Positions 5,629-26,777 of a stretch of 64,000 nt of DNA are shown piece by piece. The translations under genes were made by a program, and so were the position numbers. Location of the stretch: NCBI GenBank assembly GCA_951812955.1, contig OX638340.1, positions 416,001-480,000 on the forward strand. Reading direction: 5' to 3'. The stretch comes from an uncultured Gemmatimonadota bacterium (GTDB taxonomy: Bacteria > JAAXHH01). The stretch's first letter is position 1. Every line of letters begins with the position of its first letter. The notes under the pieces are model-generated. The model worked only from the letters and a program-made list of their open reading frames with translations, was not told the DNA's origin and did no database searches.

Positions 5629-7155
5629 TTACTTTTTCAGTTCGCGGATCTCGATATTGCCGTCGCTCGTCTCCAGCCAGATCCGGGTGCCGCCGCCGTT
5701 AAGCGCATACGTAGCGCTGATCTCTCCTTCTTCCGCGTCTTCCTCGTAGCGCTCCGCTTCCAGATCGGATCGGATCTTGTATCGCAGTGAATTTCTGACG
5801 TTACTCCGGTTGGAATGGATCACCTTCTTCTTCACTTCGACAGATTTCCTCTGTTTACTTGATAACTCCTGCCGGGCTTCCTGTAATACCTGCTGGGCTT
5901 CCTGCAATTCCCGTTGCATCTCTCGCAGGAACCGTTGCGCCTCTTCGGCTGACATCTGTAACGCCTGGTTCGCGCTCTGCGTCAGCTTTTCAATGATCTC
6001 GTTCAACTTCTCCTCGTCGATCTCCGTATCCGACAGATCGAGGTCGATCGTTGGAATCTCGGGTAATTCGGGCAGGTCGGCAGTTGTGACTACACGTGCG
6101 CGAACGGTTTTGCCGGAGGGATCAACAAACACCCCGAATCCCTCGTCCACGTGGATCCGCGCTTCGATGGTCGCCTTCGCTCCCGGATCCACGTAGAGTA
6201 CAATGTCGCCGCCGGCCGAAATAAGCGAACTGCCCTCTGAACCCTCCGGCGTGATTTCGGCCAGGACGTCGCCGCCTGCGGTCCTCGCGTCGATCGTCCC
6301 CGTTACGTTCAACAGCTCCAATTCGCCACCGGCGGTTTTCGCCTGGACGGCACCCTTCGCGTTTTGCAATTCGATATCTCCGCCGGCTGTCGTGATACGG
6401 GCGTTCGCCGAAAGCTCGTCGATCTCTATATCGCCTCCGGACGTCCTGATACGGGCCTCGCCACCTACAAACTCAATGGTGATGTCTCCGCCGGAAGTCT
6501 GGGCTTCCAGCGAATTGCCGACGCGGCCGATCCGGATATCTCCGCCGGAAGTCTGGACATCCAGGTCGGACGATGCCTCTTCGACCCGGATATCACCCCC
6601 GGACGTCTGCAGATGAACGTCGCCACCAATAGTGCCAACGTGGATGTCGCCTCCCGATGTGGTCAACTCCACTTCACCGCCGATATCCCGAAGCGTTACG
6701 TCGCCGCCCGACGTATGACTCTTCACGTCGCCCTTCAGATCGCCGACGACCTCGATATCGCCACCACCGGTGCGCAGGTCCAGGTCGAACTCCTCGGGCA
6801 GATCGATCTTGAAACGCAGCCCCTGTCTTCTGTTGAATGACCGTCTGGGAAAACGCGGGTCGTAATCGACACGCAGTATGCCCCCGTCGTAGCGTATTCT
6901 GAGGTCACTTTCTATGTTTGGCGGGATGCCCTGGACGGTCACGACCGCTTCATCCTTCCTCCACGTGGAGATGGTGATGTCGCCCGCCCGGGTGTTCAGA
7001 TCGAGCCGCTCGCCCCTTTCCACCTGGAAGGTCTCAGACCGGCTGCTGCCGGCGGCCCTGTTCTGATCCTCCGTGAGTGCCAGGGCTTGTTGCGCCAGGG
7101 CTTGCTGCGAAAAAATCAAAATGCCGAATGTGCAGACCAGAAACCTCATAATCAC
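5629..7155 (-). CDS. Secreted DUF4097-family repeat protein (putative adhesin / beta-helix) with a C-terminal coiled-coil region
   Basis: 508 aa. It has a signal peptide, more than 12 reiterated TSGGDI(x) repeat units, then a charged helical tail. It is the third gene of the sigma/anti-sigma operon. Confidence 0.75.
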   Translation of the reverse strand: MIMRFLVCTFGILIFSQQALAQQALALTEDQNRAAGSSRSETFQVERGERLDLNTRAGDITISTWRKDEAVVTVQGIPPNIESDLRIRYDGGILRVDYDPRFPRRSFNRRQGLRFKIDLPEEFDLDLRTGGGDIEVVGDLKGDVKSHTSGGDVTLRDIGGEVELTTSGGDIHVGTIGGDVHLQTSGGDIRVEEASSDLDVQTSGGDIRIGRVGNSLEAQTSGGDITIEFVGGEARIRTSGGDIEIDELSANARITTAGGDIELQNAKGAVQAKTAGGELELLNVTGTIDARTAGGDVLAEITPEGSEGSSLISAGGDIVLYVDPGAKATIEARIHVDEGFGVFVDPSGKTVRARVVTTADLPELPEIPTIDLDLSDTEIDEEKLNEIIEKLTQSANQALQMSAEEAQRFLREMQRELQEAQQVLQEARQELSSKQRKSVEVKKKVIHSNRSNVRNSLRYKIRSDLEAERYEEDAEEGEISATYALNGGGTRIWLETSDGNIEIRELKK

Positions 7156-7179: not shown

Positions 7180-8175
7180 TTAAGGTGCGGGCAGGTTGCT
7201 AAGCACGGTCCTCGCCCTGGTGCGGATATAGGCGTTTTCGTCGGAAACCATCCGGGCCCTTAGTACCCTTTCCAGGTCTTCGTCGATCGAGGTCGGCACC
7301 TGCTCCTGCAGCCGGTTGATCGCGTTGATTCTGAGGGCCGGATTCTCGTCGAAGACCAGTGTGTGGATCATGGCGTCTCTGATCCCCTCGTCAAAAGGAT
7401 ACCGGGAGAGGGCGTTGAACGCCTCGCCCCTGACCCCGGCATTCGAGTCCGTTTTCAAGGCGGTGACGAGGGCATCCTTGATCTCATGCTCCGAATGCAG
7501 GATTTCGGAATCGCTCACGGCGTTCACCGCCCGCAGCCGGACGCCGGGATTCTGTTCATTAAGTACGGCAAAGGTGAGTACACGTTGTATGCCGGGATCG
7601 TCGAGCGTTCCTCTGATCTGCACGGGCCGGACGGCTTCGAACTGGAATTCCAACATGCCATCGGGGGCGCCGGAATCCACGAACCGAACGTTTGAAATGG
7701 CCACGTCGTCATTGGTCAACAGGTCCGTCTGATCCATGCCCGGCGTCGCGAATCCAATGGAACGGTCTCCCTGGAAGGCCAGGTAGTAACCGGCAACCAG
7801 GCCGATGAACAACAGCAGTGCTCCCCCGAGGACGGAGCGGTAGGAAGGAAAGGTGTTTATCGTAACCCTTTGCAAGCCGTCTACTATGCGACCTGCCCAC
7901 CCGCTTGGGATGTGGAGACCCGGGCGGCCGAGTGTCACGTTGGACCAAAATCGGTTTCGAGCTTCATTCAGGTCTGCCGCACCAGGCCTGGCAGGGGCGG
8001 CTTCCCCCATGACCAGTCTGAATTCATCCAGACGGGCGCGGTACGCCCGGCATTGATCACATGATTCGAGATGGACGTCCAACCGCCGCTGATCTGCATC
8101 GGACAATTCACCGTATTGGGAGAGTTCCAGCCATTCTTCCCATTTCGTGTGAGACCGGCTCCTGTCTTCTTTCAT
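7180..8175 (-). CDS. Anti-sigma factor with an N-terminal zinc-finger (HxxxCxxC-type) and a C-terminal HEAT-repeat domain
   Basis: The ORF track gives 7180..8253. The likely start is ATG 8175 (MKEDRS...), overlapping the sigma stop as ATGA. Residues HLESCDQC resemble the zf-HC2 anti-sigma motif. There is a central TM segment (LLLFIGLVAGYYLAF) and HEAT-like repeats (ALRINAINRL, VRLRAVNAV). Confidence 0.65.
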   Translation of the reverse strand: MKEDRSRSHTKWEEWLELSQYGELSDADQRRLDVHLESCDQCRAYRARLDEFRLVMGEAAPARPGAADLNEARNRFWSNVTLGRPGLHIPSGWAGRIVDGLQRVTINTFPSYRSVLGGALLLFIGLVAGYYLAFQGDRSIGFATPGMDQTDLLTNDDVAISNVRFVDSGAPDGMLEFQFEAVRPVQIRGTLDDPGIQRVLTFAVLNEQNPGVRLRAVNAVSDSEILHSEHEIKDALVTALKTDSNAGVRGEAFNALSRYPFDEGIRDAMIHTLVFDENPALRINAINRLQEQVPTSIDEDLERVLRARMVSDENAYIRTRARTVLSNLPAP

Positions 8176-8831
8176 TTTCGTATGTCCTCGAGTTGACTGC
8201 GCAGTCTTCGGGTGGCATCGAAAAGGTATTTCTTTACCGTGCCTTCGGCACATTCCATGATTCCCGCTATCTCCCTCAGTTTGAATCCTTCGTGGTGGCG
8301 CAACACAAACACCGTTCGCAGACGGGGAGAAAGTGTACCGACGGCGGACCGGATCCGCGAAGCGATTTCGCTGTTGATGACTGCCGCGTCCGGCCGTTCG
8401 GGGGTAACGGGCGTAACACCGTAAGTGACCGTAGCCTGGTTTTCGTCGAACTTGTCTTCGATAGGGATGAACCGCCTGGTCCGGTTCCGCGACCGATGCG
8501 TGAGGCAGACATTGGTGACGATCCGGTACAGGTAGGTGGAAAACCGGCTGCGGAATTCGAAATCGGGCAGTGCCTTGAATACACGCATGAAGACTTCCTG
8601 GTATACATCCTTTGCGTCGTCCAGGTCGCCCACGAAGGACACGGCCATGGACAGCACTTTCTCGTCGTATCTGTATACGAGTTCTTCCAGGGCCCGCATG
8701 TCGCCTCCCCGGGCCTTGAGAATCAGCCTGCGCTCCTCCAGGTCCGTGCGATTTCCTGCCGAATCGTTATCCATGTGCTCTTCCCGATCATCCGGTGCGA
8801 TTCGGCCGTCGAGTTTACGGGCAGTTTCCAC
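8172..8831 (-). CDS. ECF-family RNA polymerase sigma-70 factor (sigma-24 type)
   Basis: The sigma-70 region 2 pattern (LEELVYRYDEKVLSMAVSFVGDLDDAKDVYQEVFMRVFKAL) and region 4 HTH (LSPRLRTVFVLRHHEGFKLREIAGIMECAEGTVKKYL) are present. The start may be GTG 8831 or ATG 8775. Confidence 0.85.
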   Translation of the reverse strand: METARKLDGRIAPDDREEHMDNDSAGNRTDLEERRLILKARGGDMRALEELVYRYDEKVLSMAVSFVGDLDDAKDVYQEVFMRVFKALPDFEFRSRFSTYLYRIVTNVCLTHRSRNRTRRFIPIEDKFDENQATVTYGVTPVTPERPDAAVINSEIASRIRSAVGTLSPRLRTVFVLRHHEGFKLREIAGIMECAEGTVKKYLFDATRRLRSQLEDIRK

Positions 8832-9508
8832 GTGGTTACCTGGTCACGTCGTGGTGCATGTGCGTGTAACTAAACTTCGAGAAACTTGCTGTCTCCGATC
8901 GGGCGCTTGGTGACCATGTGCGGGCACCTGATGATGACCTTTCTCGAGCCCTTGTGACTTTACGCTGGCGCGTGGCGCCTGGAATCCATATGCGGGATGC
9001 GGGCGCTTTATGTTCATGAGACCGTGTCTACATCGAATTGGTTGTGGACTAACGCGTTTTTTTAAAAGGAGACCGCGGGAGTATGCGGCGTATACACGAT
9101 CAACACGGTGCGCAATGCAGTCTTTAGGTGATTCAACGCACGGGAACGAGGAAAGTCGAGGGAATTACGGTTGAGGCATGTGGCGATGTGACGATACTGG
9201 CGTGTGGCGAGGTCTGTCCGGCGGACCGGATTCGAGTTCATGATCGTCAGTAAAGGCAGGAATGAGCTGGAAGGTGTTTGAAGGAGCGGGAAGGAGCTGG
9301 ACGAGCATATAACCAAAGGAATCAAAGACTTACGAATCCCAAGAAGGCAGGACGCCAGCGGCAGAGCAAGGATCTGCCGACTGGTCGGAATCGATCGACA
9401 TGATCGGAATCCGTTGTGTCAATAGCCGGAGGGTGGCCATTCAATCCGGTCGGTGGAACCGCACGAATTTTACGCAACCGGAAACAGGCCGCTCGATACG
9501 ACAGGCGT

Positions 9509-9703
9509 TCAGCCGTCCTTCGAGGTAGACGAACCTGACGTATTCTGATTCTCTTCGGCGGGCTCTTTCTTCTGTGCTTTCTTGAATTCGGTGATCCCCT
9601 GGCCCAATCCCTTGGCCAGTTCAGGGAGCTTCTTCGCGCCAAATAGGACCATGACGATTACAAGAATAATAATCAGTTCGGTCGTGCCGAAACTACCGAG
9701 CAT
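9509..9703 (-). CDS. tatA: Twin-arginine translocase subunit TatA/E
   Basis: 64 aa. An N-terminal TM helix followed by an amphipathic helix ([30 protein letters not shown]) is the TatA hallmark. A perfect GAGGAGG RBS is present. Confidence 0.85.
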
Positions 9704-9922
9704 TTAAATCACCTCCTCAGAACGCAGGATACCTTTATTGCCCTGGTTTGTCAAGCGGCAATAAAAGGACTTCCATTCTGCCGCTTAGCTGCCAACGACC
9801 CGGCGCAGTCGCATGGGCATGCCGTTTAGAATACTTGCATAGAAGCAATTTGCGTGTTTACTTATTCCCTGACCACAAATTTTGAAGTCGCTGCCGGTTG
9901 ATTTTATACGTTCAAGGAGGAC

Positions 9923-10165
9923 ATGGTGACTGTACGCATTGTATACTGCGCTGATTGAAGCTATGAACAAGACGCCGCCGGGTTGGCGGTGAAATTACTT
10001 GAGTATTACAAACACGATATCGAGCAGTTGCAGCTTGTGCCTTCCGGGGGCGGCAGGTTCGAAGTCACCGTGGATGATTCGCTGATCTTCTCCAAACTGG
10101 GAACCGACCGGTTTCCCGAATACGGGGAGGTCAAGGACGCCATCGAGGCATCGATCGCGGGTTGA
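9923..10165 (+). CDS. SelW/Rdx-family selenoprotein with in-frame TGA (Sec) at 9956-9958. The ORF track shows only the 3' part, 9983..10165.
   Basis: ATG 9923 with an AAGGAGG RBS reads MVTVRIVYCAD-U-SYEQDAAGLAVKLLEYY...GGGRFEVTVDDSLIFSKLGTDRFPEYGEV. The CxxU redox motif and the G-FEV-V-G-L-FSK-GRFP core match the Rdx/SelW family. The frame is continuous across the TGA. Confidence 0.7.
9973..9991 (+). other. Candidate bacterial SECIS hairpin 15 nt downstream of the Sec-UGA
   Basis: cGCCGCC-GGGUU-GGCGGUg forms a 7-bp stem with a G-rich 5-nt apical loop, placed as a bacterial SECIS should be relative to UGA. Confidence 0.45.
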
Positions 10166-10273
10166 ACCGCAATCGACCGCCGCGGCGTCTATTAAGGATC
10201 CATAATCCAGGTCCGGACGCTTTTCCCGGCCCGGGCGCTTTTCCAGTCTATTGGTCTGAGGACAGAGGTTAGT

Positions 10274-10615
10274 ATGAATATCTACGTTGCGCTGGAAGAC
10301 GAGATCGCCGTGCTTCGCATCGAGGGCAGATTGTGGGAAGAAGGAGACAGCGTTGAGCTGGATCGGATGATCGACGATACCCTTGACCGGGGATGCACGC
10401 GGTTCGTTGCCGATTTGACCGGCGTGCCCATCATGAACAGTTCCGGGTTGGGTTCGCTGATCGCGGCCATGAAGAAAATACGTTCCAGGTCCGGGGAGAT
10501 GGTGCTCACCGGCGTCAACGACCGCCTGGATCAACTGTTCCGGATCACCCGGCTGTACACGGTCTTCAAGAAGTATGACGATGTGGACGCCGCCGTGGAA
10601 AACATGCATGCCTGA
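10274..10615 (+). CDS. STAS-domain protein (SpoIIAA-like anti-sigma-factor antagonist)
   Basis: 113 aa. A conserved phosphorylatable Ser sits in the NSSGLGSL context. The STAS fold pattern matches RsbV/SpoIIAA. Confidence 0.8.
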   Translation: MNIYVALEDEIAVLRIEGRLWEEGDSVELDRMIDDTLDRGCTRFVADLTGVPIMNSSGLGSLIAAMKKIRSRSGEMVLTGVNDRLDQLFRITRLYTVFKKYDDVDAAVENMHA

Positions 10616-13112
10616 CTACCAGCCCCTGGACCTCACGCCGAGTTGCAACGCGCCCCGAAGCATTTACGATTCCATAACGGATCCTCCGCTCGGATCACAG
10701 GAATTCTATGGTCTTCCCTTTCAAATCGGCGACGGCGCCGGAGATTCCGACTGTTTCGTCGGCTTCGGTGACCAGATCGGCTGCTCGTCCTCTCCCGCAG
10801 CGATTCCCGTCGAAAGTTCCGCCGTCAACGTGATCTTCGCCCACGCGGTGATCCGTTCGGAAATCGAGGCCGGCGGTCCGATCGCCCTTCCCGTGGCCAC
10901 TTACCGGTTCATCTGGGACGACGGGCATGACGAGTCCGTTACGATCCGCGAGCGGTTCGAGATCGGCTACATGCCGCTGCCCTGGGGACAATACCCCTTC
11001 CTGTGCGTGCCCGATCAGAAGCCGGTTATTTACAACCGGTCCGGCGGCGATTGGAACGATGCCGGCCGCCGGCAGACCGAAGCCGAGCAGGGTTGGCCAC
11101 AGGGGTACTACCTCTGGGCATGGCGCAATCCCCGGCCCGACCAGGATATCCGTTCCATCGAAATCACGCCGCAGGGCCCACCTTTCGTCGTGGCCGCCAT
11201 CACGCTCGGCCATGTCGACGAAGATCCAATTTGCCGGTGGGCTGCCAGGGACGTCCAGGTCGAACTGAAAAACCCGAAGCGCGCGGAGAAACCCTTCGAC
11301 CTCGAAGTCGAAGTCGACCGCGGCTACGCCACATACGCCTATCCACTGCCCGGGCAGGTCGACCAGGCCTTCATGAACGACACCCACCGCGGATGGGGCC
11401 AGGCGGACAGCAACCGCTCCAGTCCCGCCCATGTTGGCGTGGCTGGCACGCCGTCGGCCACGGTGACCGTAAAACAGGACGGGAAGGCGGTCGGGTCGGC
11501 TAACTGGGGCGAGCTGGAAGCGAAAGAGGTAGTCGATACGCCCGCGGTTCGATTCGAGGTCATCGACACGGGACGAAACTGGGTACACACCACGGTCCTG
11601 GACGACGAGACCGGCCACCCCGTGCCCTGCCGTGTGCATTTTCGATCTGCCAAGGGTGTGCCGTACGCGCCCCACGGCCACCACGCCCACGTGAATTCGA
11701 ACCTGGATACCTGGCACGTGGACGTGGGCGGCGACGTCAGGCTGGGACAGATGTCCTATGCGTACATCGACGGCAGGTGCCAGGGCTGGCTGCCCCGGGG
11801 CGAGGTGCACGTGGACGTGGCCCGGGGATTCGAATATGAGCCGATTCGCGAGTGCGTCACCATCGATCCCGGGCAACGCGAGCTTACCCTCAGGCTGAAG
11901 CGGTGGACCGATCTGAACGCGGAACGGTATTTCAGCGGCGACACCCACGTGCATTTCCTCTCCACCCAGGGCGCTCACCTGGAGGCCCAGGGGGAAGACC
12001 TGAACGTGGTCAATCTCCTGCTGTCCCAATGGGGAGGCCTTTTCACGAACACGGAGGAGTTCACCGGATCGGCGAGCGCGTCGCCGGACGGAGATACGAT
12101 CGTTTACGCCTCGCAGGAAAACCGGCAGCACATCCTGGGCCACCTTTCGCTCCTCGGCCTCAAAGAACCGGTCATGCCCTGGTGTTCGGACGGACCCGGT
12201 GAAGCGGAACTGGGAGGCAACCTGGAAACGACCCTGTCGTACTGGGCCGACGCCTGCCATGCGCAGGGCGGGACGGTCGTGATTCCCCATATCCCCAATC
12301 CAAACTGCGAACCGGCGGTTCTCATCGCCACGGACCGCGCCGACGCCGTGGAGATGCTGGTGCACAGCGAGTACAATCACCTCGAATACTACCGGTACCT
12401 GAACTGCGGCTACCGTCTGCCGCTCACGGGCGGGACGGACAAGATGTCCAGCGACGTGCCCGTGGGGATCTACCGGACCTATGCCTACATCCCGCCGGAC
12501 GAGCCCTTTACCTACGACAACTGGTGCAAGGCGCTGCGCGGCGGCAACACCTTCCTGAGCGCGGGACCCATCATCCGGTTCACGGTGAACGGCCGGCCGA
12601 TCGGCGATACGGTAAATCTACCCGGCAACGGCGGGACGGTGGAGATCGAGGCGTCGGCGGATTCGACCCTGCCGATCCATACCCTGGAAATCGTGCAGCA
12701 GGGCAAGGTCGTCGCCGCTACGGAAGAGATGAAAGGCGTCCGCCGGTTATCGCTCAAGACCTCCCTGAAGATTGAAAGCCACACGTGGCTGGCGGCCCGG
12801 TGCGCCGGACCGAACTACTCCAGCGTACCGCACCACGACGGCTGGCGCCGCGGCATCATGGCCCATACGTCGCCGGTATACGTGGCCTGCGGCGGCCCCT
12901 ACTGGCTGTTCGACCTGGAAAACGCCCAGTACATGCTGAGCCTGATCGAAGGGGGCCTTTCCTACATCAAGCGTCGAAGTTGGCAACACAAGCCGGAAAC
13001 GACCACCCACCACCACGGCGGCGACGACCACGAAGCCTTTCTCGAAGCCCCATACCTGCAGGCGCGGGAAGCCATCCACCGCCGCATGCACGAACTGAAC
13101 ATCCCGCATTGA
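10608..13112 (+). CDS. Large uncharacterised cytoplasmic protein (about 835 aa). Its C-terminal half resembles a PHP / CehA-McbA-like metal-dependent hydrolase.
   Basis: The ORF track gives 10575..13112. The ATG at 10608 overlaps the STAS stop (ATGCCTGA). The GDTHVHF motif plus downstream His/Asp clusters (HHAHV, QHILGH, EYNH) are typical of PHP-superfamily metallohydrolases. The N-terminal 400 aa resemble nothing I recognise. Confidence 0.5.
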   Translation: MPDYQPLDLTPSCNAPRSIYDSITDPPLGSQEFYGLPFQIGDGAGDSDCFVGFGDQIGCSSSPAAIPVESSAVNVIFAHAVIRSEIEAGGPIALPVATYRFIWDDGHDESVTIRERFEIGYMPLPWGQYPFLCVPDQKPVIYNRSGGDWNDAGRRQTEAEQGWPQGYYLWAWRNPRPDQDIRSIEITPQGPPFVVAAITLGHVDEDPICRWAARDVQVELKNPKRAEKPFDLEVEVDRGYATYAYPLPGQVDQAFMNDTHRGWGQADSNRSSPAHVGVAGTPSATVTVKQDGKAVGSANWGELEAKEVVDTPAVRFEVIDTGRNWVHTTVLDDETGHPVPCRVHFRSAKGVPYAPHGHHAHVNSNLDTWHVDVGGDVRLGQMSYAYIDGRCQGWLPRGEVHVDVARGFEYEPIRECVTIDPGQRELTLRLKRWTDLNAERYFSGDTHVHFLSTQGAHLEAQGEDLNVVNLLLSQWGGLFTNTEEFTGSASASPDGDTIVYASQENRQHILGHLSLLGLKEPVMPWCSDGPGEAELGGNLETTLSYWADACHAQGGTVVIPHIPNPNCEPAVLIATDRADAVEMLVHSEYNHLEYYRYLNCGYRLPLTGGTDKMSSDVPVGIYRTYAYIPPDEPFTYDNWCKALRGGNTFLSAGPIIRFTVNGRPIGDTVNLPGNGGTVEIEASADSTLPIHTLEIVQQGKVVAATEEMKGVRRLSLKTSLKIESHTWLAARCAGPNYSSVPHHDGWRRGIMAHTSPVYVACGGPYWLFDLENAQYMLSLIEGGLSYIKRRSWQHKPETTTHHHGGDDHEAFLEAPYLQAREAIHRRMHELNIPH

Positions 13113-13161
13113 GCATCCGTGCGGGCATGTCGTCCCGTTAAACCGAACCGGAGAATGACAC

Positions 13162-14748
13162 ATGCAGGGACCCCGTGTCGACCGGGTCATATTCTGGGTC
13201 GCGCTGCCGCTGATCGCGGGCGTCTCGGTACCGCTGGTGCTGTTTCCCGTCGAGGGAGAAGCCCTCCTGAGCGCGGCTTTCGGCTGGCTGACACGGGTCC
13301 TGGGATGGGCCTATCTCTGGTTCACGATCGCCGCCTTCGCGATCCTGGTCTATTACGCCCTGGGCAAGTACGGTCATGTGCGTTTCGGGGGGCCCGACGC
13401 CAAACCCGAATTCTCCCTGGTCAGCTGGATCGCCATGATCTTCTGCGCCGGCATCGGCGCCAGCGTCCTGTACTGGGGCACCATCGAGTGGGTCTACTAT
13501 TACACGAACCCGCCCTTCGGCCTCGAACCGCGCTCCACCGAGGCCACCGAGTGGGCGGCGACCTACGGGCTGTTTCACTGGGGATTCACGGCATGGGCCA
13601 TTTACTGTATCCCGACGCTTCCCCTGGCCTACCTGTTCTGGAACCGCGGGCGGCCCATCCTGCGCATGTCCGCGGCCTGTGAAGGCGTCATCGGCGAACG
13701 CGCCACACGGGGCTTTCCGGGCAAGGTCATCGACATGTTCTTCATGTTCGGCCTGCTCGGCGGGGTTGGAACGTCCATCGGACTGAGCACGCCCATGATT
13801 TCGGCCGGCCTGTCGGAACTGCTGGGTGTGGAAAGAGGATTCTGGCTCGACGCGGCGGTGGTGATCACTTTGGGGGTGATCTTCGGCGTCAGCGTCTATA
13901 CGGGGCTGCAGCGCGGCATCCGTGTCCTGAGCGGGGTCAACCTCTGGCTCACCATCGGGGTGCTGACCTTCGTCTTCCTGTTCGGTCCCACGCTGTTCAT
14001 CATCGACACGTTCACCAACAGCATCGGCCTGCTGGTGCAGAACTTCATCAAGATGAGCTTTTACCTCGAACCCGTCGCCAAGGCGGAATCTATTATCTCG
14101 GCGGCGGCGGAAGGGAGATCGGGACTGTCTTCCGCGGATACGTTCTCTGAACAGTGGACCATCTTCTATTGGGCGTGGTGGATCGCCTTCGCGCCCTTCA
14201 TGGGTCTCTTCGTCGCCCGGATCTCCCGGGGCCGCACGATCCGCGAGTTGATCGGCGCTGAATTAGTAGGCGGATCTCTGGGCTGCTGGCTGTTCTTCGC
14301 GGTGCTCGGCAACACGAGCCTGTTTCTGCAGCTTGAAGGATCCCAGGACCTCACCGGCCTGGTTGCCCGCAACATGACCCCGGAGGCGATCATCACGACC
14401 GTGGTAGCCGTGGGGGACCGGGTGATCCCTTTCGCCGTGCCCCTCCTGATGGTTTTCGTAACCCTTGCGATCATCTTCGCCGCCACCACGCTGGACTCGG
14501 CGTCTTACATCCTGGCGTCAGTGGCTACGAAGGAACAGGCCGAGGTACGGGAACCCGCGCGCTGGCACCGCTGCTTCTGGGCCGTCGTACTCAGTTCCGT
14601 TGCCCTGTCATTGATGTTCGTTGGAGGTACGGAAAGCCTGCGGGCGGTCCAGTCGGCGTCCCTGATCGTCGCGCTTCCCCTCATCGCCGTGCTGGTCCTG
14701 ATGACGATGTCCTTCATCCGGTGGCTGAGGCAGGACCACGGATCGTGA
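13162..14748 (+). CDS. BCCT-family transporter (betaine/carnitine/choline type)
   Basis: 528 aa with 12 predicted TM helices and a BCCT signature region (WTIFYWAWWIAFAPFMGLFVARISRGRTIRE). A GGAGAA RBS is present. Confidence 0.85.
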   Translation: MQGPRVDRVIFWVALPLIAGVSVPLVLFPVEGEALLSAAFGWLTRVLGWAYLWFTIAAFAILVYYALGKYGHVRFGGPDAKPEFSLVSWIAMIFCAGIGASVLYWGTIEWVYYYTNPPFGLEPRSTEATEWAATYGLFHWGFTAWAIYCIPTLPLAYLFWNRGRPILRMSAACEGVIGERATRGFPGKVIDMFFMFGLLGGVGTSIGLSTPMISAGLSELLGVERGFWLDAAVVITLGVIFGVSVYTGLQRGIRVLSGVNLWLTIGVLTFVFLFGPTLFIIDTFTNSIGLLVQNFIKMSFYLEPVAKAESIISAAAEGRSGLSSADTFSEQWTIFYWAWWIAFAPFMGLFVARISRGRTIRELIGAELVGGSLGCWLFFAVLGNTSLFLQLEGSQDLTGLVARNMTPEAIITTVVAVGDRVIPFAVPLLMVFVTLAIIFAATTLDSASYILASVATKEQAEVREPARWHRCFWAVVLSSVALSLMFVGGTESLRAVQSASLIVALPLIAVLVLMTMSFIRWLRQDHGS

Positions 14749-14788
14749 AGTCTTCCCAATATGCCGCAAATGTCGCGGTAGCATAACA

Positions 14789-14829
14789 AAGCCCGGACTG
14801 CTCAGGAGAGCGATCCGGGCTTCGCTTTC
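14789..14829. terminator. Candidate bidirectional intrinsic terminator between convergent BCCT and TonB-receptor genes
   Basis: A 9-bp stem aagcccgga / tccgggctt has a 16-nt loop. It is followed by a cgctttc tract on the plus strand. Confidence 0.35.
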
Positions 14830-14890
14830 AGGACGGATCAACGCCTGCCTTCATTGATCCCCCGCTCAGTGTTCCTCCTCCGTTCGCCTC

Positions 14891-17860
14891 CTACTGAAAC
14901 TGGTACGTCAGCCCCAGCTTGAAACGCCTTCCTTTCGGATCGTGCGTCAGTGCGTCGAAGGCCAGTTCCTGGTTCACATAGGGCGGCGGCGCGTCGGTCA
15001 GGTTAAACATCGACAGGGTGGCGACCACACCCGCATTGGGTATCCGCCACTGAAAATTCATATCGAAGGTCAGGAACGAGTCGATCTGGGTCCAGTCTTC
15101 GCCCGCGGGCCCCGTATCGAACCACCAGTCCCCATTCTCGTATGAGGAGATGTAATGTCCCCTGGCGATGGCGCTGTAGTCGCTCCAGTGGTATCCGGCG
15201 GACGCGTTCAGTCGCAGGGGAGGCAATGGCGGCGCCAGGGGATTCGTCGCGTTGAGGAACCCCACGGCCTCATTCTCGCCGACCAGCTCCACGCCGTTGT
15301 GCATGAGAGGCTCTATGGTATAGTCCAGGGTGTAACTGCCATCCAGGTGAACGTCGATCGCGCCACTGCCCATTACCTGTCGCGCACCGATATGCCAGTC
15401 GATCCCCGAGGTCTTGAGGCCGGGCCAGTTGATATGGTTGATCCTGATCCGTTCCATGTCACCCGGAGCGCAACTCCCGTCGTTTCGATTGCCGGGACAG
15501 TAAATGCGGTCCTGCACCGCGGCTCGGGTTGACGGATCCACGTAGGCCGCCGCCAGGGCGGCATCGGGAATGACACCGATGGGATTGTTGAAGTCGAAAT
15601 TCCAGTAATCCACCGCTGCTTCGAAACCGGTGTCGTTTTCTACGATCACGCCGATGTTATAGGTAAACGCTTCTTCCGGTTCGAGGTCTTCCACGCCCCG
15701 GTTTTCAATGGCCTTCCAGGCGCCTGTCGGTCCGACGTAAGCCGTGTAGATGACTACGTCTGTATTCAGATCGTCCACTGAGGGTGTTCGGAAGGTAGTC
15801 TGAACCGTACCCCGCAGAGCCAGGTTATCGTTTAACTGCGCCCGCAGGGAGACTTTCGGGTCCAGGCTGTTTGCGAACCCGTAATCCTCGAAATGCAGCG
15901 CCGCCTGGGTATCCAGCCAATCGCTGTACTTAAGCGCCAGTTCGGCAAAAACTGCGTGGGTCGTCTGATTGGCTTCATATGGATGGATACCCGATGTGAA
16001 GGTAAAGGACCCAGTCTGAATATCACAGCTCGTATCCCCCGGTATGCGGCAGGGATTCCGGGAGAGGTCGCCGGGCGCATTGGGCACGGCGGAGACATCG
16101 ACGCGGCGCAACTGGTACCCCGCGGCGTAGCTGGCGACGTCTTCCTTCAGCACACCGCTCAACAGACCGTCCAGCACCAGCAGGCTGGCCTCGCTGGTTG
16201 TGGCGACTTTTTCGTTTATCCAACCGAGCAGCTCGGGACTGTGCGCGAGGTCGGCGCGGTAATTCGGATTGGCGCTGTCCGTATAGGGTGCGTCCGGTTG
16301 CGCGGAAAACTGGATGCCATTGCTGAAGGGATTGAAGTAGGAGCAGTTCCCGGATCCTGCGATGACGCCGCTGGGGATAGTTCCGAGGGCAAGGCCGGAA
16401 GGCGCGCTGGGAACCGGGACGACCCCGACGCCGCAGTTCGCCCCTCCGTATCCACGGAAAGCCAGGAACTTCCGGTACGCGTATTCCGCGGGTTGGCGCA
16501 CCGTGCCCTTCGTATCCGAATAAGATATACCGAGATCGTAGCTGATGTTGGACTCGCCTATCGGTCCGGTAAGCGATCCGGCCAGGCGGCGGGTAACGGA
16601 CTCCCTGCTCTGGACGCGTCCGGGGCCGGCATTTCCGACCAGGCGGCCGAAGAAGTACCAGGGCTGGTCGCCGGTAAGGTCCAGCACATCTCCGCTAGCG
16701 TTCGTATAGGTGGGGTTCTCCGCTACGAAGGCCACGCGGCCGGGATGATCGACAGGTACCTGCTGCACGCCGTCATAGAAGGCGATGGGAGGAAACGAAG
16801 GGGTCGTCTCCCACTCGGGTACCCGTGCGTCATGGTAGAGCGCTTCCACGTGATACGTCGTTTCGCCCAATGAACCGTTCAACTCGGCGAATCCCCGGGT
16901 GTGCTGGAGTTTTTCGATGATGCTGTCCCAGGGCTGATAGCGGAAGCGGCACGTACTGGCGCCCACCTGGTAACCGCCCAGGCCTTCACAACCCGGATCG
17001 ACGAATCGAGGTTCGCCGGAAAGTACGGCCTCGTCTGTTATATTCCCGTCCGGTATGATGAATGCGCCGGGGTTGCCGTACCAGGACCAGCCCCATCCGT
17101 AGTTCGGAAAGGGACGCAGCGCCCAGTCCCGCTCTTCGGCGCGCAAATTCTGGCGGCGCTTGTGTTCCAGGGATACCACCAGGTGGGAATCGCCGACTTT
17201 GCCGCCCCAGATGCCGCCCAGCATGGCGTCTCCGGCGGAGTCGAAATAGTCATAGGACACGTCCAGCTCGAAACCTTCGAAACCGCTTCGCGTGATGAAG
17301 TTGGCGACGCCCGCGATCGCATCCGATCCATATACGGCGCCCGCGCCTTCCTTCAGGATATCCAGCCGTTCGATGGAGATGGACGGGAAAGCGTTCACGT
17401 CGACAAACCGGCCCCCGACGAGCCGGCCCGCGACGTAGGTCTGCCTGCGGCCATTGAGCAGCACCAGGCTGCGCGAAGCGCCGAGGCCGCGGAGGTTGAT
17501 GTTCGCCACGGTTTCGGGGATGTCTCCCGACTGCGCGTTGTACCAGCTGTTGGCCTCGCCGATGACGCCGCTGCTCGCACTCAGGTTCTTGAACAGGTCG
17601 ACCATGGATGGCGCACCCTGTTCAGCCAACGACGATCGGTCGATGCGGGCGACTGCATAGGGGAGTTCGATCGGGGATTCCCGGACCGCGGTACCGGTCA
17701 CGACGATCGCCTCCGCCTCGATCACGGGCAGCAGGAAGAGGGAATCCAGCTCCGCTTCCTCCTGTTGGTCCGCGTACGTGTTGGAGTAAGGCGGCATTCC
17801 GGCCAGACAAAGCCAGCCGAAGGCAATCAATGCCAATGAACGCATATCCATGTTGTACAT
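14891..17860 (-). CDS. TonB-dependent outer-membrane receptor
   Basis: 989 aa. It has a signal peptide and a plug domain (NINLRGLGASRSLVLLNGRR). The C-terminal barrel ends with an aromatic residue (GLTYQFQ). Confidence 0.85.
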   Translation of the reverse strand: MYNMDMRSLALIAFGWLCLAGMPPYSNTYADQQEEAELDSLFLLPVIEAEAIVVTGTAVRESPIELPYAVARIDRSSLAEQGAPSMVDLFKNLSASSGVIGEANSWYNAQSGDIPETVANINLRGLGASRSLVLLNGRRQTYVAGRLVGGRFVDVNAFPSISIERLDILKEGAGAVYGSDAIAGVANFITRSGFEGFELDVSYDYFDSAGDAMLGGIWGGKVGDSHLVVSLEHKRRQNLRAEERDWALRPFPNYGWGWSWYGNPGAFIIPDGNITDEAVLSGEPRFVDPGCEGLGGYQVGASTCRFRYQPWDSIIEKLQHTRGFAELNGSLGETTYHVEALYHDARVPEWETTPSFPPIAFYDGVQQVPVDHPGRVAFVAENPTYTNASGDVLDLTGDQPWYFFGRLVGNAGPGRVQSRESVTRRLAGSLTGPIGESNISYDLGISYSDTKGTVRQPAEYAYRKFLAFRGYGGANCGVGVVPVPSAPSGLALGTIPSGVIAGSGNCSYFNPFSNGIQFSAQPDAPYTDSANPNYRADLAHSPELLGWINEKVATTSEASLLVLDGLLSGVLKEDVASYAAGYQLRRVDVSAVPNAPGDLSRNPCRIPGDTSCDIQTGSFTFTSGIHPYEANQTTHAVFAELALKYSDWLDTQAALHFEDYGFANSLDPKVSLRAQLNDNLALRGTVQTTFRTPSVDDLNTDVVIYTAYVGPTGAWKAIENRGVEDLEPEEAFTYNIGVIVENDTGFEAAVDYWNFDFNNPIGVIPDAALAAAYVDPSTRAAVQDRIYCPGNRNDGSCAPGDMERIRINHINWPGLKTSGIDWHIGARQVMGSGAIDVHLDGSYTLDYTIEPLMHNGVELVGENEAVGFLNATNPLAPPLPPLRLNASAGYHWSDYSAIARGHYISSYENGDWWFDTGPAGEDWTQIDSFLTFDMNFQWRIPNAGVVATLSMFNLTDAPPPYVNQELAFDALTHDPKGRRFKLGLTYQFQ

Positions 17861-17919
17861 GATAGTCCGCCAATCTGTGTAAGTTTTTTATGATTTCATG
17901 GTTTCGGAATTAGAAACAA

Positions 17920-17948
17920 TGTATACATAACAATCTCCATTATGTCAA
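17920..17948 (-). promoter_or_regulatory. Candidate sigma70 promoter in the AT-rich region upstream of the TonB-dependent receptor
   Basis: On the minus strand: TTGACA, a 17-nt spacer, then TATACA. The surrounding 150 bp is markedly AT-rich compared with the window. Confidence 0.35.
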
Positions 17949-18114
17949 GGGAATTAAGGACTTATACTTGCGTTACAAAAGCTCACAATACACTGTGCAA
18001 TAACTTGAAACTGTAAATGGCAAATCGTAATTCCCGGCGGCCTTACTGGACGATGCCCGCATTTCGCACCGCGTCTCGTCGCACCATTGCTGCACATGAT
18101 CCGGTGCCTGCACA

Positions 18115-19008
18115 TCATTGCCTGATCAGATTAAGGCACCAGAACAGCGGTGGCAAGGCGAACACATCGCTACGTCCTTCCACGTACCGCTTGTGCTGAT
18201 CGTCCGGAGAATCGTTACAGACGACTTCCCAGAACCCATGGACATTAAACTCAGATTCCACACGGTCCGGATCGAAGGACGTAATCATGGGTTCACCCAG
18301 TTTGCCCACATAGTTCTTCAAACTGATCGCAAGCGGGCGTTTTTCCTCAGGGATGCTGCCGTCTTCTGCCAGGTAATCGAAGACGATCTCGGAACCGGGG
18401 CAGGCAATGCCGGCCACGTGTTTCAGCGTGTCTTGAATCGCTTCCCGTGAAAGGTAATAGGTCACGCCCAGCCAGTTGAAGAAAGACTTCTTACCCGGGT
18501 CGAATCCATGGGCGGTCAACTTGTCTCCGAGATCGTCTTTTTCAAAGTCGAAAGGAATGTGCCGCACACAGTCTGGAAACGCCAGTCCGGCCGCGCGGGC
18601 CCGCTCCCTTTTGAGGGCGATCGTAGATGCGAGATCGATTTCATAGATGGTTACGCCGAGTCGTGGATGACGCAGCGCGAAGGTATCATAGCCTGAGCCG
18701 AGTATGACGTATTGTCTTACGCCCTTTTCGATCGACGCCAGCAGGCGATCTTCTGTAAATCGAGCCCGCGTGAGGGGTTGTGTGGTGATCGGCATGAGCC
18801 TGCGCAGCAGGACCTTTGATACAATCATGTCGCGCAGTCTTGAACCGAGGATCCGTTGCCACCGCTTGCTCAGAAAACGGAACGCGAAGGGATCGTTGAA
18901 AATGTAGGGTGGTTTGTGCCGGAGGAGATGCCGCGCACGGCTTACCGCCACGAGTTCGGCCGTTCGGCTGCCATGTATCTGAACCTGACCGGGGGGCTGT
19001 TCAGACAT
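18115..19008 (-). CDS. Class I SAM-dependent methyltransferase (leucine-carboxyl / TcmP-like O-methyltransferase family)
   Basis: 297 aa. A motif I-like VILGSGYDT and overall LCM-family architecture are present. Confidence 0.7.
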   Translation of the reverse strand: MSEQPPGQVQIHGSRTAELVAVSRARHLLRHKPPYIFNDPFAFRFLSKRWQRILGSRLRDMIVSKVLLRRLMPITTQPLTRARFTEDRLLASIEKGVRQYVILGSGYDTFALRHPRLGVTIYEIDLASTIALKRERARAAGLAFPDCVRHIPFDFEKDDLGDKLTAHGFDPGKKSFFNWLGVTYYLSREAIQDTLKHVAGIACPGSEIVFDYLAEDGSIPEEKRPLAISLKNYVGKLGEPMITSFDPDRVESEFNVHGFWEVVCNDSPDDQHKRYVEGRSDVFALPPLFWCLNLIRQ

Positions 19009-19040
19009 AGTTAGGTATTGGGTTACCTTGATTACCCGGT

Positions 19041-19382
19041 TCAGGTTCCGAAGGCTTCGATAGCGCCTTCCAACGTATCGTGGACGGCGAACACGGTGGT
19101 CAACTTCGTCATCTGGAGAAGGCTGCTGACGCTGCGTGTCACCCGCGCGAGCTTGAGGTCCCCGCCGACCTTTTGCATGCGGGTGTATGCGCGGATGAGG
19201 AGACCCAGGCCCGAACTGTCGATCCAGTGCACCTTGCTCAGATCGAAGATGATCTTCCTGGAGCCATTGTCGGCCAGTTTGTTGATACGCTCGCTCAGGG
19301 CGTCGGTGTCCCTTCCCTCGGCCATGCGGCCACTCAATTCCAGCACCGTGACGTCACCGTGCTTTAATTCTCTGACTTTCAC
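19041..19382 (-). CDS. STAS-domain protein (anti-sigma-factor antagonist), second copy
   Basis: 113 aa. It has the DSSGLGLL phospho-Ser motif. It lies 32 nt upstream of the methyltransferase on the same strand. Confidence 0.8.
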   Translation of the reverse strand: MKVRELKHGDVTVLELSGRMAEGRDTDALSERINKLADNGSRKIIFDLSKVHWIDSSGLGLLIRAYTRMQKVGGDLKLARVTRSVSSLLQMTKLTTVFAVHDTLEGAIEAFGT

Positions 19383-19721
19383 TGATTCCTGCCTCTCTCA
19401 AGCGGGACCGGGGCGGAAACCTGCTGATTTCCCCGCAATCATCCCGCGATTTGAACGCTATCCCAACGACGCTTCGGCCATTCCGGGAAGGACGTTCCGT
19501 TCGTTGACCGTCGACCGGTCATTCCATGGTGTCGTGTGTCGCAAAATCCCCGAACCCGTTTAAATCCGCACGCCCATCCGCACATGCACAGGGGCAGTTG
19601 CAGGCGAAATTAGAGGGATCAAGAATGATATACCTTGACTTGGCGGGGTACTGGCGCCGGAAGAACGTCCCGCAACTCCGGAATGGGTAATCAAACCGAG
19701 CGGCATAAACGAGAACTTCCA

Positions 19722-19760
19722 CCGGATGCCACCCCAAGGGGTGAATCCGGTCTTGTCTTG
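19722..19760 (+). promoter_or_regulatory. Terminator-like hairpin plus U-tract inside the 5' leader of the RibD-C gene (candidate attenuator / riboswitch expression platform)
   Basis: ccggatgccaccccaaggggtgaatccgg forms a bipartite stem of about 11 bp. It is followed by tcttgtcttg and lies about 95 nt upstream of the start codon. A further 80 nt of structured sequence precedes it. Confidence 0.4.
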
Positions 19761-19857
19761 ATGAAATGCGCGTTGAATAATATACTGTTCAAGTTCACCT
19801 GTCAAGTCGATTTTATGGGCTGATTCCTGATTCCTCACTCGATTGGACCGACTTGAA

Positions 19858-20553
19858 ATGAAACCGGACCGACGACCCCACATCCTGCTTAATTACGCCA
19901 TGAGCCTGGACGGCAAGATCTCCACGGAGCATCGCGATCCGGTTCTATTCACGAGCAAGATAGACCGCGGGCTAATGGACGAGATCAGGGCGGACGTCGA
20001 CGCCGTACTCATCGGCGCCGGTACGCTTCGCGCAGAGGAGCCACCGGTCAGGATACGGTCAGCCAGGCGGAGGGATGAGCGCGTGCGAACCGGTAAATCG
20101 CCCCATCCCGTCTCGGTGATTCTGTCCCGCACCATGCTGCTGCCCGTCGAAGGAAGGTATTGGAAAGACGACAAGGTTGAACGGATCATCGCGACCACGA
20201 ACCAGGCGCCGGATGAGCGGATATTACCCTTTAAAGCGAAGGCGGAGGTCATCCGGTCAGGCCGGTACGCCGTGGACCTTGGTGAATTATGCCGTCTGCT
20301 GTATGACCGCGGCATATCCCGGCTACTCGTGGAAGGCGGAGGTGAGGTCAATATGGCATTCTGGGAAGCCGGGCTGGTGGACGAGGTGTACCTGACCCTG
20401 TGTCCCGTGGTGATCGGTGGGCGGAACGCGCCGACAGCGGCAGACGGTACGGGTTTCACCGTAGACTGTATCCGTAAACTCAGACTGATCGAATCCAGAC
20501 GGGTCGGGCAGGAGTTGTTTCTGCGATACCGGATGGTGCGAACCAGGTCGTAG
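19858..20553 (+). CDS. RibD C-terminal-domain reductase (dihydrofolate-reductase-like family)
   Basis: The LNYAMSLDGKI start, the LVDEVYLTLCPVVIGG motif and the length match the RibD_C/DHFR fold. The start may be TTG 19843 or ATG 19858. Confidence 0.75.
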   Translation: MKPDRRPHILLNYAMSLDGKISTEHRDPVLFTSKIDRGLMDEIRADVDAVLIGAGTLRAEEPPVRIRSARRRDERVRTGKSPHPVSVILSRTMLLPVEGRYWKDDKVERIIATTNQAPDERILPFKAKAEVIRSGRYAVDLGELCRLLYDRGISRLLVEGGGEVNMAFWEAGLVDEVYLTLCPVVIGGRNAPTAADGTGFTVDCIRKLRLIESRRVGQELFLRYRMVRTRS

Positions 20554-24811: not shown

Positions 24812-25768
24812 TCAATCGCGCAGCTCCGCCCGGATGCGGTCGGCCAGCCTCATCGTCTCCACAGCCTCCTCCAGCCCCGCCGCGGGCAGATCCACGGGCC
24901 GGTCCTCCTTGATGCAGTCGATGAGGAAGCGGGCCTGTTCGGCCGTTCCGGCGGATTCCACCGTGTCGAGCACTTCTTCTTTGCCGTCCCGCTGTACCAC
25001 TGCTCTCTTCACGCCTTCCAGGTAGGCCGAACAGTCCCTGCCGTGGATTTCATAGCGCTCCAGGCGGGCGTCCGTCGTGAAATTGGCTGTGAGCTGGGCC
25101 ACGCACCCATTTTCGAATCGTAAGAGCGCCGCGTAGACGTCGACATATCGAGAATGAGCCCTGCGGGCGACGGCATGGACTTCGGCGATGGGAGAACTGC
25201 CCGCCAGGGACCGGGTCAGGTCGATGGCGTGGATCGGCGTCTCGTAGATGAAGTTGTCCAGCAGATGGTCTGGGAAGGGCCGTTCACGCAGGCGCGTCAT
25301 GCTCTTGTGAAATTCCGCCACGATCTGGGTGACGGGTCCCCGCTCCTCGATCATGCCTCGGGCCTTGCAGATCAGGGAATGGAACCGGCGGTTCCAGCCG
25401 ACCAGCACCTTCGCTCCGGATGCGTTGGCGGCGTCGCGGAGCCCCTCGGCTTCCGCGCCCGACAGGCCGGGCGGCTTTTCAATGAGCGCGTGCACACCGG
25501 CCTGTATGACGGGCAGCGCGCATTGGCCGTTCAGGTGGGCCGGCGTCGCGACTACCGCCAGGTCCAGATCTTCCATCGACAGCATGTCCTCGATATCTTC
25601 GTATCGCCGCGGGACTGCGTTTTCCTCAGCCACCCGGTCGCGCAGTTCCTTCACCGGATCGCACACGGCCACGAACCGCAGGTCGTCGAAGGTCTTCATG
25701 GTCTCGAGATGACCGCGACCCCGCCCTCCGCATCCGATCAGGGCGGCTTTTAAGACTGTTTCCGGCAT
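24812..25768 (-). CDS. Gfo/Idh/MocA-family NAD(P)-dependent oxidoreductase
   Basis: An N-terminal Rossmann motif (KAALIGCGGRGRGH) and an EKP motif (LIEKPPGL) are present. The ATG at 25768 has a GGAG RBS. The track's TTG 25831 adds an atypical extension. Confidence 0.8.
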   Translation of the reverse strand: MPETVLKAALIGCGGRGRGHLETMKTFDDLRFVAVCDPVKELRDRVAEENAVPRRYEDIEDMLSMEDLDLAVVATPAHLNGQCALPVIQAGVHALIEKPPGLSGAEAEGLRDAANASGAKVLVGWNRRFHSLICKARGMIEERGPVTQIVAEFHKSMTRLRERPFPDHLLDNFIYETPIHAIDLTRSLAGSSPIAEVHAVARRAHSRYVDVYAALLRFENGCVAQLTANFTTDARLERYEIHGRDCSAYLEGVKRAVVQRDGKEEVLDTVESAGTAEQARFLIDCIKEDRPVDLPAAGLEEAVETMRLADRIRAELRD

Positions 25769-25847
25769 TTGGGTTGCTCCGGTTGCGGTGGTGAGCATCC
25801 TCTGCGAAGCGTATATTACTATAAGTTGCAATCACCACGGTATATTG

Positions 25848-25911
25848 CTTGACGCGTGCAATGCTAGACGCGTGCAATGATTGACGCATGCTTTGCTTGA
25901 CGCGTGCAATG
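25848..25911. promoter_or_regulatory. Four tandem 16-bp repeats (YTWGACGCRTGCWWTG), a candidate operator array in a divergent promoter
   Basis: cttgacgcgtgcaatg / ctagacgcgtgcaatg / attgacgcatgctttg / cttgacgcgtgcaatg are phased 16 bp apart. Each has a partial palindrome centred on ACGCGT. The array lies between the Gfo/Idh/MocA gene (minus) and the PhyH gene (plus). Confidence 0.5.
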
Positions 25912-25964
25912 TATCGCCATTTCTTCTGCAAGTAAACCCACCATTATCGAACGGTGATTCCTGC

Positions 25965-26702: not shown

Positions 26703-26777
26703 GTCATGGGTAGAATCAATGGCCAGGATGGGACCGTCTGTTGAGGTTGGTACAAACTGGCACAAATTGGAGAGCGA

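Follow-up and report, generated by a model that had tools for sequence, protein, structure and literature searches.

We analysed a stretch of 64,000 nucleotides (nt) from an uncultured Gemmatimonadota bacterium (GenBank assembly GCA_951812955.1, contig OX638340.1, positions 416,001 to 480,000; hereafter the window), with the focus on a large metallohydrolase gene that lies between a STAS gene and a gene for a BCCT-family transporter. A preliminary description of this DNA had proposed that the three genes form a module, in which a phosphorylatable STAS switch is linked to a novel hydrolase and a betaine- or choline-type substrate. Our results point to a different reading, with a probability of about 0.68, in which the hydrolase acts on its own as a cytoplasmic, metal-dependent enzyme of the PHP fold, the STAS gene and a selenoprotein gene before it are lineage-specific upstream neighbours that are probably co-transcribed with it, and the BCCT gene is a later insertion. 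The hydrolase does not depend on STAS or BCCT, since it occurs in hundreds of species that lack them. The domain assignments of the preliminary description (STAS, PHP/CehA-McbA metal hydrolase, BCCT) were borne out by Pfam and NCBIfam, and the motifs GDTHVHF and NSSGLG are both present. The three genes are as follows (aa, amino acids).

10274..10615, + strand: upstream STAS protein (SpoIIAA/RsbV-like), a single domain of 113 aa; Pfam STAS, E 1.9e-14
10608..13112 (stop included), + strand: CehA/McbA-type PHP-fold metallohydrolase, 834 aa; NF038032, 153.7 bits
13162..14748, + strand: BCCT-family transporter, 528 aa; Pfam BCCT, E 1.3e-150; PF02028, 502.6 bits

Family assignment and spread of the hydrolase

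The hydrolase matched the NCBIfam model NF038032 (CehA/McbA family metallohydrolase domain) over residues 440-759, scoring 153.7 bits against a cutoff of 80 and covering profile positions 1-314 of 315. The metal motif SGDTHVHF occupies residues 443-450. Pfam gave no domain for the protein, only a spurious sub-threshold PD40 repeat, and the Pfam PHP model matched none of 28 family members, even at E-values up to 5. Sequence and profile searches of the hydrolase against PDB gave no match either, and its relationship to PHP proteins is visible solely through NF038032 and structure. The length first given, 835 aa, counted the stop codon and is corrected here to 834. The start at 10608 is supported by homologues of 831-834 aa that open with MxDYQPLDL, and an ATG at 10575 lies in the same open frame. 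As read from the sequence, the N-terminus has no hydrophobic stretch.

A first search returned 2333 homologues, with the architecture fixed at about 830 aa. The best 120 were full-length (810-874 aa) and 62-90% identical, came from Poribacteria, Chloroflexota/Caldilineae, Latescibacterota, Zixibacteria and Chthonomonadaceae, and were called, where named, 'CehA/McbA family metallohydrolase' or 'hypothetical protein'. When the N-terminal half (residues 1-435) was searched exhaustively with HMMER, it matched 865 clusters at 50% identity; the region was N-terminal in all near-full-length matches (810-900 aa), and the shorter ones, a few of which have 500-770 aa, look like fragments. A profile search with a diverse alignment recovered the same subfamily, and one distant member then served as query. 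The genomes of at least 528 species and 302 stretches of metagenome DNA encode a relative. The architecture has been retained in Poribacteria, Chloroflexota, Gemmatimonadota, Latescibacterota and Armatimonadota, with identities of about 60-65% across these phyla. Judged from these sequences, the ~830-aa architecture appears fixed. The family is widespread, already named and functionally unstudied; what is undescribed is the ~830-aa subfamily and its N-terminal 320 residues. The preliminary description had said that a well-characterised family for the large protein would refute its proposal; the family carries a name in NF038032 but is uncharacterised.

Two full-length homologues with 29-30% identity come from cultured strains and would be convenient for genetics: one on plasmid p4_1 of Bradyrhizobium sp. 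4 (L091), the other on plasmid pMspAR10a of Mesorhizobium sp. AR10 (L092).

Structure model and conserved residues

The final structure was modelled with AlphaFold from 64 diverse sequences spanning 35-85% identity, and conservation was read from the same alignment. The model reached a predicted local distance difference test score (pLDDT) of 91.3 and a predicted TM-score (pTM) of 0.88. In a Foldseek search with this model, the best match was 2anu_A (E 1.5e-4, probability 1.00), and the hydrolase has the PHP barrel fold. A first model, built from 28 close homologues, was dropped; its pLDDT was 70.8, with the catalytic half below 50, and the fold search with it found no PHP match. The hydrolase divides into the following parts.

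10608..11567, + strand: N-terminal mostly-beta region, residues 1-320, of no described sequence family
11574..11903, + strand: beta-sandwich domain before the catalytic domain, residues 323-432, common to McbA; conserved loop PHGHHAHVNSN...GGD
11925..13109, + strand: PHP-fold catalytic domain, residues 440-653 and 735-834, split by a beta-sandwich insert
12570-12806, + strand: beta-sandwich insert in the catalytic domain, residues 655-733

Residues 1-320 form two beta-rich domains (approximately 1-210 and 214-320). The N-terminal half had no match in Pfam, NCBIfam or PDB sequences. The earlier statement that this half matches nothing recognisable is upheld; the first ~320 residues have no described family, and residues 323-432 are shared with McbA. 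One part of residues 1-320 resembles AziU2 of the aziridine-forming enzyme AziU3/U2, whose fold is common to CtaG and CcbD. In the model this likeness is structural only, with no detectable sequence relationship and no biosynthetic-cluster context, and the predicted resemblance is a lead and not a sign of membership.

The placement of a PHP-type metal site in the C-terminal half was upheld by NF038032, the AlphaFold model and the alignment with McbA. Candidate metal ligands are H447, H449, E504, H508/H512, H561, E582, D611 and H753. Invariant in all 64 sequences were, in the catalytic part, D445, H447, H449, E463, E504, N505, R506, H508, H512, H561, E568, D579, E582, D611, K612, R623 and H753, and, in the N-terminal part, H79, R116, R342, D372 and D376; R114, E118 and N174 of the N-terminal region were near-invariant. 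In the model, D445, H447, H449, E463, E504, H508, H512, H561, E568, E582, D611 and H753 lie at strand ends, and the assignment of ligands to individual metal sites is inferred.

Comparison with McbA and with solved PHP enzymes

The carbaryl hydrolases McbA/CehA (Pseudomonas sp. XWY-1 and C5pp, Rhizobium sp. AC100, Sphingobium) carry the same NCBIfam domain, NF038032, as the window hydrolase. Pairwise BLASTP with McbA of Pseudomonas sp. XWY-1 gave E 1e-20 and 25% identity over residues 333-763, and tblastn against plasmids matched the mcbA carbaryl hydrolase gene with E 5e-14. The aligned region comprises the pre-catalytic beta-sandwich, the PHP-like metal domain and the beta-sandwich insert, and the two proteins have the motifs SGD-H-x-H, QE...H..GH, PH/AH, G(T/S)D and HTSP-Y-V in common. 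Histidines of the predicted PHP-like domain of McbA, among them H504, are reported as essential in the passage of PMC8292978 that cites Zhu et al. 2018. H447 and H449 align with the H-x-H of McbA and H561 with H504, one of the histidines named as essential in that passage; around H508/H512 the BLAST register is shifted by 1-2 residues.

The two proteins also differ. The window hydrolase has about 320 additional N-terminal residues, which are not alignable to the N-terminal 276 of McbA, and it has no signal-peptide-like N-terminus. McbA is reportedly periplasmic. The gene of the window hydrolase lies on the chromosome, and the protein keeps about 60-65% identity from phylum to phylum, whereas McbA/CehA genes are plasmid- or transposon-borne. 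Since identity to McbA is only 25%, carbaryl hydrolase activity should not be transferred to the window protein; and because carbaryl is synthetic, the activity of McbA tells little about the natural substrate.

Solved PHP metal-dependent phosphoesterases (3e38, TM0559 2anu, PsfC 7rty, EndoQ 5zb8, RNase AM 9etk) share 13-16% sequence identity with the hydrolase. None of them has its 430-residue N-terminal extension, and the two best structural matches themselves lack an assigned function.

Gene order across lineages

Synteny was scored in about 170 related loci. Of at least 528 genome stretches with a match, counted with one genome per species, the best 80 loci were used; another 80 came from metagenomes, in which 302 stretches matched, and a dozen other contexts completed the set. 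STAS adjacency was scored by tblastn and a STAS hidden Markov model (HMM) built from the two STAS proteins of the window, and every count of upstream STAS genes applies wherever the flank was on the contig. A STAS gene lies directly upstream of the hydrolase gene in 23 loci, all with hydrolase identity of at least 69% (L001-L015, L094-L097, L099, L100, L158 and L161), and tblastn and the HMM found STAS only in L001-L015, L094-L100, L158 and L161. Neither STAS nor BCCT was found in about 145 loci with hydrolase identity of 66% or less, among them loci from Poribacteria, Chloroflexota, Latescibacterota and Armatimonadota and from metagenomes of soil and sea. The proposed three-gene module did not hold up in this sample: the STAS gene belongs to one clade (at least 69%), within which its adjacency does persist, and the BCCT gene to the closest relatives alone (at least 85%). 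Missing synteny conservation, which the preliminary description had named as a refuting result, was thus largely what we saw for BCCT and, beyond that one clade, what we saw for STAS. The suggested link to a betaine- or choline-type substrate reduces to adjacency in one lineage.

The window clade consists of marine and, by their genome names, sponge-associated bacteria (with hosts such as Aplysina and Ircinia) labelled Gemmatimonadota or Latescibacterota. Its backbone reads tatA (on the - strand), a SelW-like selenoprotein gene (rdx), STAS and hydrolase, followed by a variable slot and a second, convergent STAS gene (STAS2). The clade-specific conserved unit is therefore rdx, STAS and hydrolase, not STAS, hydrolase and BCCT. 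A wider backbone is common within the clade, each gene being present in part of the relatives, with ilvBNC upstream and extracytoplasmic function (ECF) sigma and anti-sigma genes, tatA, rdx and RibD_C nearby. Because this wider backbone is shared, the STAS-hydrolase adjacency is embedded in general collinearity.

In Poribacteria (L016-L080), the order is Gfo/Idh/MocA oxidoreductase, hydrolase and Zn-dependent dehydrogenase (Zn-ADH). It recurs in two distinct larger settings, and genes for an ABC ATPase and a PhyH dioxygenase often lie upstream. The three genes may form a true operon, which could then point to the substrate. Among 89 loci outside both the window clade and Poribacteria, clustering of neighbours gave at most five occurrences of any family, and such recurrences are partly copies of one contig (the Chthonomonadaceae set) or near-identical contigs. 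Transporter adjacency, counted as genes with at least five predicted membrane helices, was not enriched (16 of 247 adjacent genes vs 22 of 536 distant genes; Fisher test, p = 0.16), and 9 of the 16 adjacent membrane genes are the window clade's own BCCT. Individual distant homologues do adjoin transport genes: the hydrolase gene follows an Opp-type ABC transporter in Caldilineae, lies directly after an MFS transporter on the Bradyrhizobium plasmid (24-nt gap), and is near an ABC system and a serine hydrolase in Mesorhizobium.

A paralogous subfamily (about 39% identity) adjoins PhyH, a DAO/GCV_T gene (dimethylglycine-dehydrogenase-like), or AP_endonuc_2 with HSP20/DnaJ/ClpB. At the five places examined (L088, L089, L090, L174-176 and L177-179) there was no adjacent STAS gene and no consistent partner, and at L088 a weak STAS match was found only about 4 kb downstream. 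The paralogue lies upstream of HSP20 in L174-L179 and L089, and upstream of HSP20-DnaJ-ClpB in L174-L176. Read from gene content, this HSP20 context and the STAS and ECF genes of the window could hint at a stress-related regulon.

The STAS-hydrolase junction

As first described, the two genes overlap: the STAS stop TGA (10613-10615) overlaps the hydrolase ATG at 10608 in ATGCCTGA, by 8 nt. The junction AACATGCATGCCTGAC is found in the window, L001 and L002, and L094 has the same 8-nt overlap by its coordinates; the overlapping start is limited to these four near-identical sequences. In L003, L004 and L006-L010, the STAS protein ends with ...NMLA and a stop, followed by 26 nt with GAGG (GAAG in L010) and then by ATGCCGGAC (ATGACGGAC in L008). 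The other relatives checked have a STAS-hydrolase spacer of 25-150 nt, with GAGG ahead of the start in most.

From the alignment, the overlap fits a deletion of about 33 nt between CCTGAC and CCGGAC together with a CTC-to-CAT change that would have made the new ATG. Under such a deletion the N-terminus MPDYQ was kept, and the ancestral spacer and its GAGG were lost. Translational coupling is real but is a recent, derived feature, and the lesson is that a neat overlap of two genes can stem from a recent deletion and not from ancient coupling.

The two STAS proteins

The upstream STAS protein scored 60.4 bits against TIGR00377 (anti-sigma-factor antagonist, NCBIfam; cutoff 53.45). Like SpoIIAA and RsbV, it is a single domain, and the serine of its motif MNSSGLG aligns with the D-S-S/T-G-L motif, at the position phosphorylated in those proteins (SpoIIAA Ser58, RsbV Ser56). 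The motif N-S-S/T-G-L was found in 15 of 15 aligned orthologues and the next glycine in 14 of 15; Asn replaces Asp before the serine in all of them, which is clade-specific. Unlike the setting of SpoIIAA/RsbV systems, the window has a nearby sigma factor of the ECF type with a zf-HC2 anti-sigma protein. No gene for an RsbW/SpoIIAB-type kinase or anti-sigma factor or for a PP2C phosphatase was found among the ~30 window genes scanned, in agreement with the preliminary description, or in the flanks of related loci. Given the spacers of 25-45 nt in most relatives, the upstream STAS gene is probably co-transcribed with the hydrolase gene.

The second STAS protein, at the far end of the variable slot, keeps the canonical D-S-S-G-L-G and likewise has its serine at the site phosphorylated in SpoIIAA and RsbV.

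19041..19382, - strand: second STAS protein (STAS2), motif IDSSGLG; Pfam STAS, E 2.4e-17; convergent with the hydrolase

STAS2 is 66-83% identical in sister lineages and at least 95% identical in close relatives. The upstream STAS protein diverges faster, being 36-58% identical in sister lineages whose hydrolase is 69-77% identical.

The BCCT gene and the variable slot

The BCCT gene begins 49 nt past the hydrolase stop and has a ribosome-binding site of its own, GGAG about 8 nt ahead of the ATG, both as first described. No terminator-like site was found between 13112 and 13162, and the gene is probably co-transcribed with the hydrolase gene in the window; the promoter and terminator scan of the region was uninformative overall. 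Compared with CaiT, BetP and BetT, the protein has a full-length domain and exceeds the cutoff of TIGR00842 (449.9 bits; cutoff 407.55), but falls below every substrate equivalog cutoff (CaiT 421.6 vs 541, betaine 371 vs 650, BetT 267 vs 695). Its best, sub-threshold equivalog match was the carnitine/gamma-butyrobetaine antiporter model.

In the window, the slot between the hydrolase and STAS2 also holds the following genes.

14891-17860, - strand: TonB-dependent receptor; Pfam Plug and TonB_dep_Rec_b-barrel
18115-19008, - strand: LCM-type methyltransferase; Pfam LCM

This block of BCCT, TonB receptor and methyltransferase fills the slot in 13 loci (L001-L010, L012, L015 and L094), which are the closest subclade, with hydrolase identity of at least 85%, and to which BCCT is confined. 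All three genes are absent from the sister lineages L011, L013, L014, L095-L099, L158 and L161. STAS2 directly follows the hydrolase, leaving the slot empty, in L011, L014/L085, L095, L096, L098, L099, L158 and L161, and the slot holds an Amidohydro_3 gene in L013 and L086/87. The BCCT gene is a recent, lineage-specific insertion into a variable slot.

The upstream selenoprotein gene and other genes of the window

Upstream of the STAS gene, a seemingly empty 1.4 kb of the window carries two small genes.

9924..10165, + strand: SelW-like (Rdx family) selenoprotein gene, 80 codons; PF10262, E 8.2e-21
9509-9703, - strand: TatA/E gene, 64 aa; PF02416, E 3.3e-20

The rdx gene lies 108 nt upstream of the STAS gene on the same strand, and it was overlooked in the preliminary description because open reading frame (ORF) lists split it. 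It has a strong ribosome-binding site (AAGGAGG) and an in-frame TGA (9957-9959) that belongs to a C-A-D-U motif; with this TGA translated as Cys, the match to PF10262 covers the profile in full. The TGA (C-A/S-D-TGA) and the coding sequence on both sides of it are kept in 25 of 25 loci holding the gene, at 59-99% identity, and this conservation argues for a genuine selenocysteine codon. The TGA is followed at a distance of 14 nt by a 7-bp hairpin of unremarkable stability (z -1.65). The tatA gene sits in a lower-GC, seemingly empty stretch between the ECF sigma gene and the STAS gene and is also annotated upstream of STAS in L085-L087. An antisense ORF at 9995-10609 (- strand, 204 aa) was rejected as spurious: its third-codon-position GC content is 0.59, where real genes have 0.75-0.83, and it lies across two conserved genes, rdx and STAS. 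Rfam gave no match in 8000-20000 at E-values up to 1.

Further upstream, three genes stand in series.

8172-8831, - strand: ECF sigma factor
7180-8253, - strand: zf-HC2/HEAT anti-sigma protein
5629-7155, - strand: DUF4097 'toastrack' protein

The listed sigma and anti-sigma ORFs overlap by about 80 nt, and the true anti-sigma start is probably more downstream. Anti-sigma proteins of the zf-HC2 type are not known to be targets of STAS proteins.

A separate gene cluster at 24812-32293 includes the following genes and further PhyH-like genes, the latter judged by N-terminal sequence only.

24812-25831: Gfo/Idh/MocA oxidoreductase (Pfam)
25881-26702: PhyH dioxygenase (Pfam)
27830-29269: sulfatase (N-terminal sequence only)

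Sets of Gfo/Idh/MocA, PhyH and sulfatase genes are typical of sponge symbionts.

Discussion

For the hydrolase, the results above establish family membership, fold, a conserved set of candidate metal ligands and an apparently fixed architecture. The fold, the ligand set and the comparison with McbA suggest a bi- or trinuclear metal centre (H447/H449, E504, H508/H512, H561, E582, D611, H753) that would activate water, and the activated water would cleave an ester-type bond (phosphoester, carboxyl ester or carbamate) of a cytoplasmic substrate, with the N-terminal domains possibly shaping substrate access. The STAS protein would be a conventional phosphorylatable switch of the anti-sigma-antagonist type, acting via its conserved serine, with its kinase and phosphatase presumably encoded elsewhere. 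In the window's subclade, the block of BCCT, TonB receptor and methyltransferase would have entered the variable slot, and the ~33-nt deletion would later have joined the STAS stop with a newly formed start codon of the hydrolase gene. As far as gene order can tell, the neighbours seem to reflect lineage history and not a dedicated system.

Several observations weigh against this reading. Within the ~830-aa subfamily, the chemistry is wholly inferred. Poribacteria keep the Gfo/Idh/MocA gene immediately upstream in two contexts, indicating that local operon partners exist and that a catabolic role with uptake is possible, and transporters of other families adjoin distant homologues in Bradyrhizobium, Caldilineae and Mesorhizobium. 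The STAS-hydrolase adjacency outlasts the divergence of the STAS protein to 36-58% identity, with short spacers; it is longer-lived than random adjacency and would fit a functional link.

Such a link could take the form of enzyme regulation, in which the STAS protein, perhaps with the SelW-like protein, binds the hydrolase or is sequestered, and phosphorylation or a redox change switches the enzyme, the output not being a sigma factor. The order rdx, STAS and hydrolase is kept in the clade loci holding all three, mostly with short STAS-hydrolase spacers, the phosphorylatable serine is conserved with its clade-specific Asn, and there is no RsbW-type anti-sigma gene nearby. Yet all lineages beyond the clade have the hydrolase without STAS, no STAS gene adjoins the paralogous subfamily at the five places examined (with only the weak match about 4 kb downstream in L088), and STAS proteins are often orphan genes; moreover, 15-20 kb of backbone are collinear in the clade, so that the adjacency may be inherited. 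We therefore regard STAS-based regulation as unlikely. We think it quite unlikely that the BCCT protein imports a quaternary-ammonium ester (acyl-carnitine, a choline ester or a related host compound) that the hydrolase cleaves in the cytoplasm, an arrangement that would apply to the window's subclade only. In its favour, the 49-nt gap without a terminator-like site makes co-transcription likely, BCCT is kept in 13 of 13 subclade loci, some distant homologues adjoin other transporters, and the gene after one paralogue is similar to those for dimethylglycine or sarcosine dehydrogenase. However, sister lineages keep the same hydrolase at 69-77% identity without BCCT, so the substrate predates the transporter. 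In addition, the block that brought BCCT also contains a TonB receptor of opposite orientation and a methyltransferase, family members show no enrichment of adjacent transporters (p = 0.16), and the equivalog models assign no substrate. Both alternatives rest on adjacency in one lineage, and the autonomous PHP-fold enzyme remains the reading that we prefer. Bolder proposals, namely that the hydrolase of this clade has a dedicated post-translational switch in the STAS protein, possibly with the SelW-like selenoprotein, or, separately, that the ~830-aa family with its AziU2-like N-terminal domain may catalyse a new PHP reaction, seem to us very improbable.

The value of the locus lies in the enzyme family and not in the proposed module: a fixed architecture of about 830 aa is found in at least 528 species and has no Pfam model. 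To our knowledge, the sole characterised relatives of the family are recently recruited pesticide hydrolases. The STAS link, if true, would be a further example of a STAS protein acting on an enzyme. The natural substrate of the hydrolase, once defined, would allow thousands of genes of marine, soil and sponge-associated bacteria to be annotated, and would also show the origin of the carbaryl hydrolases.

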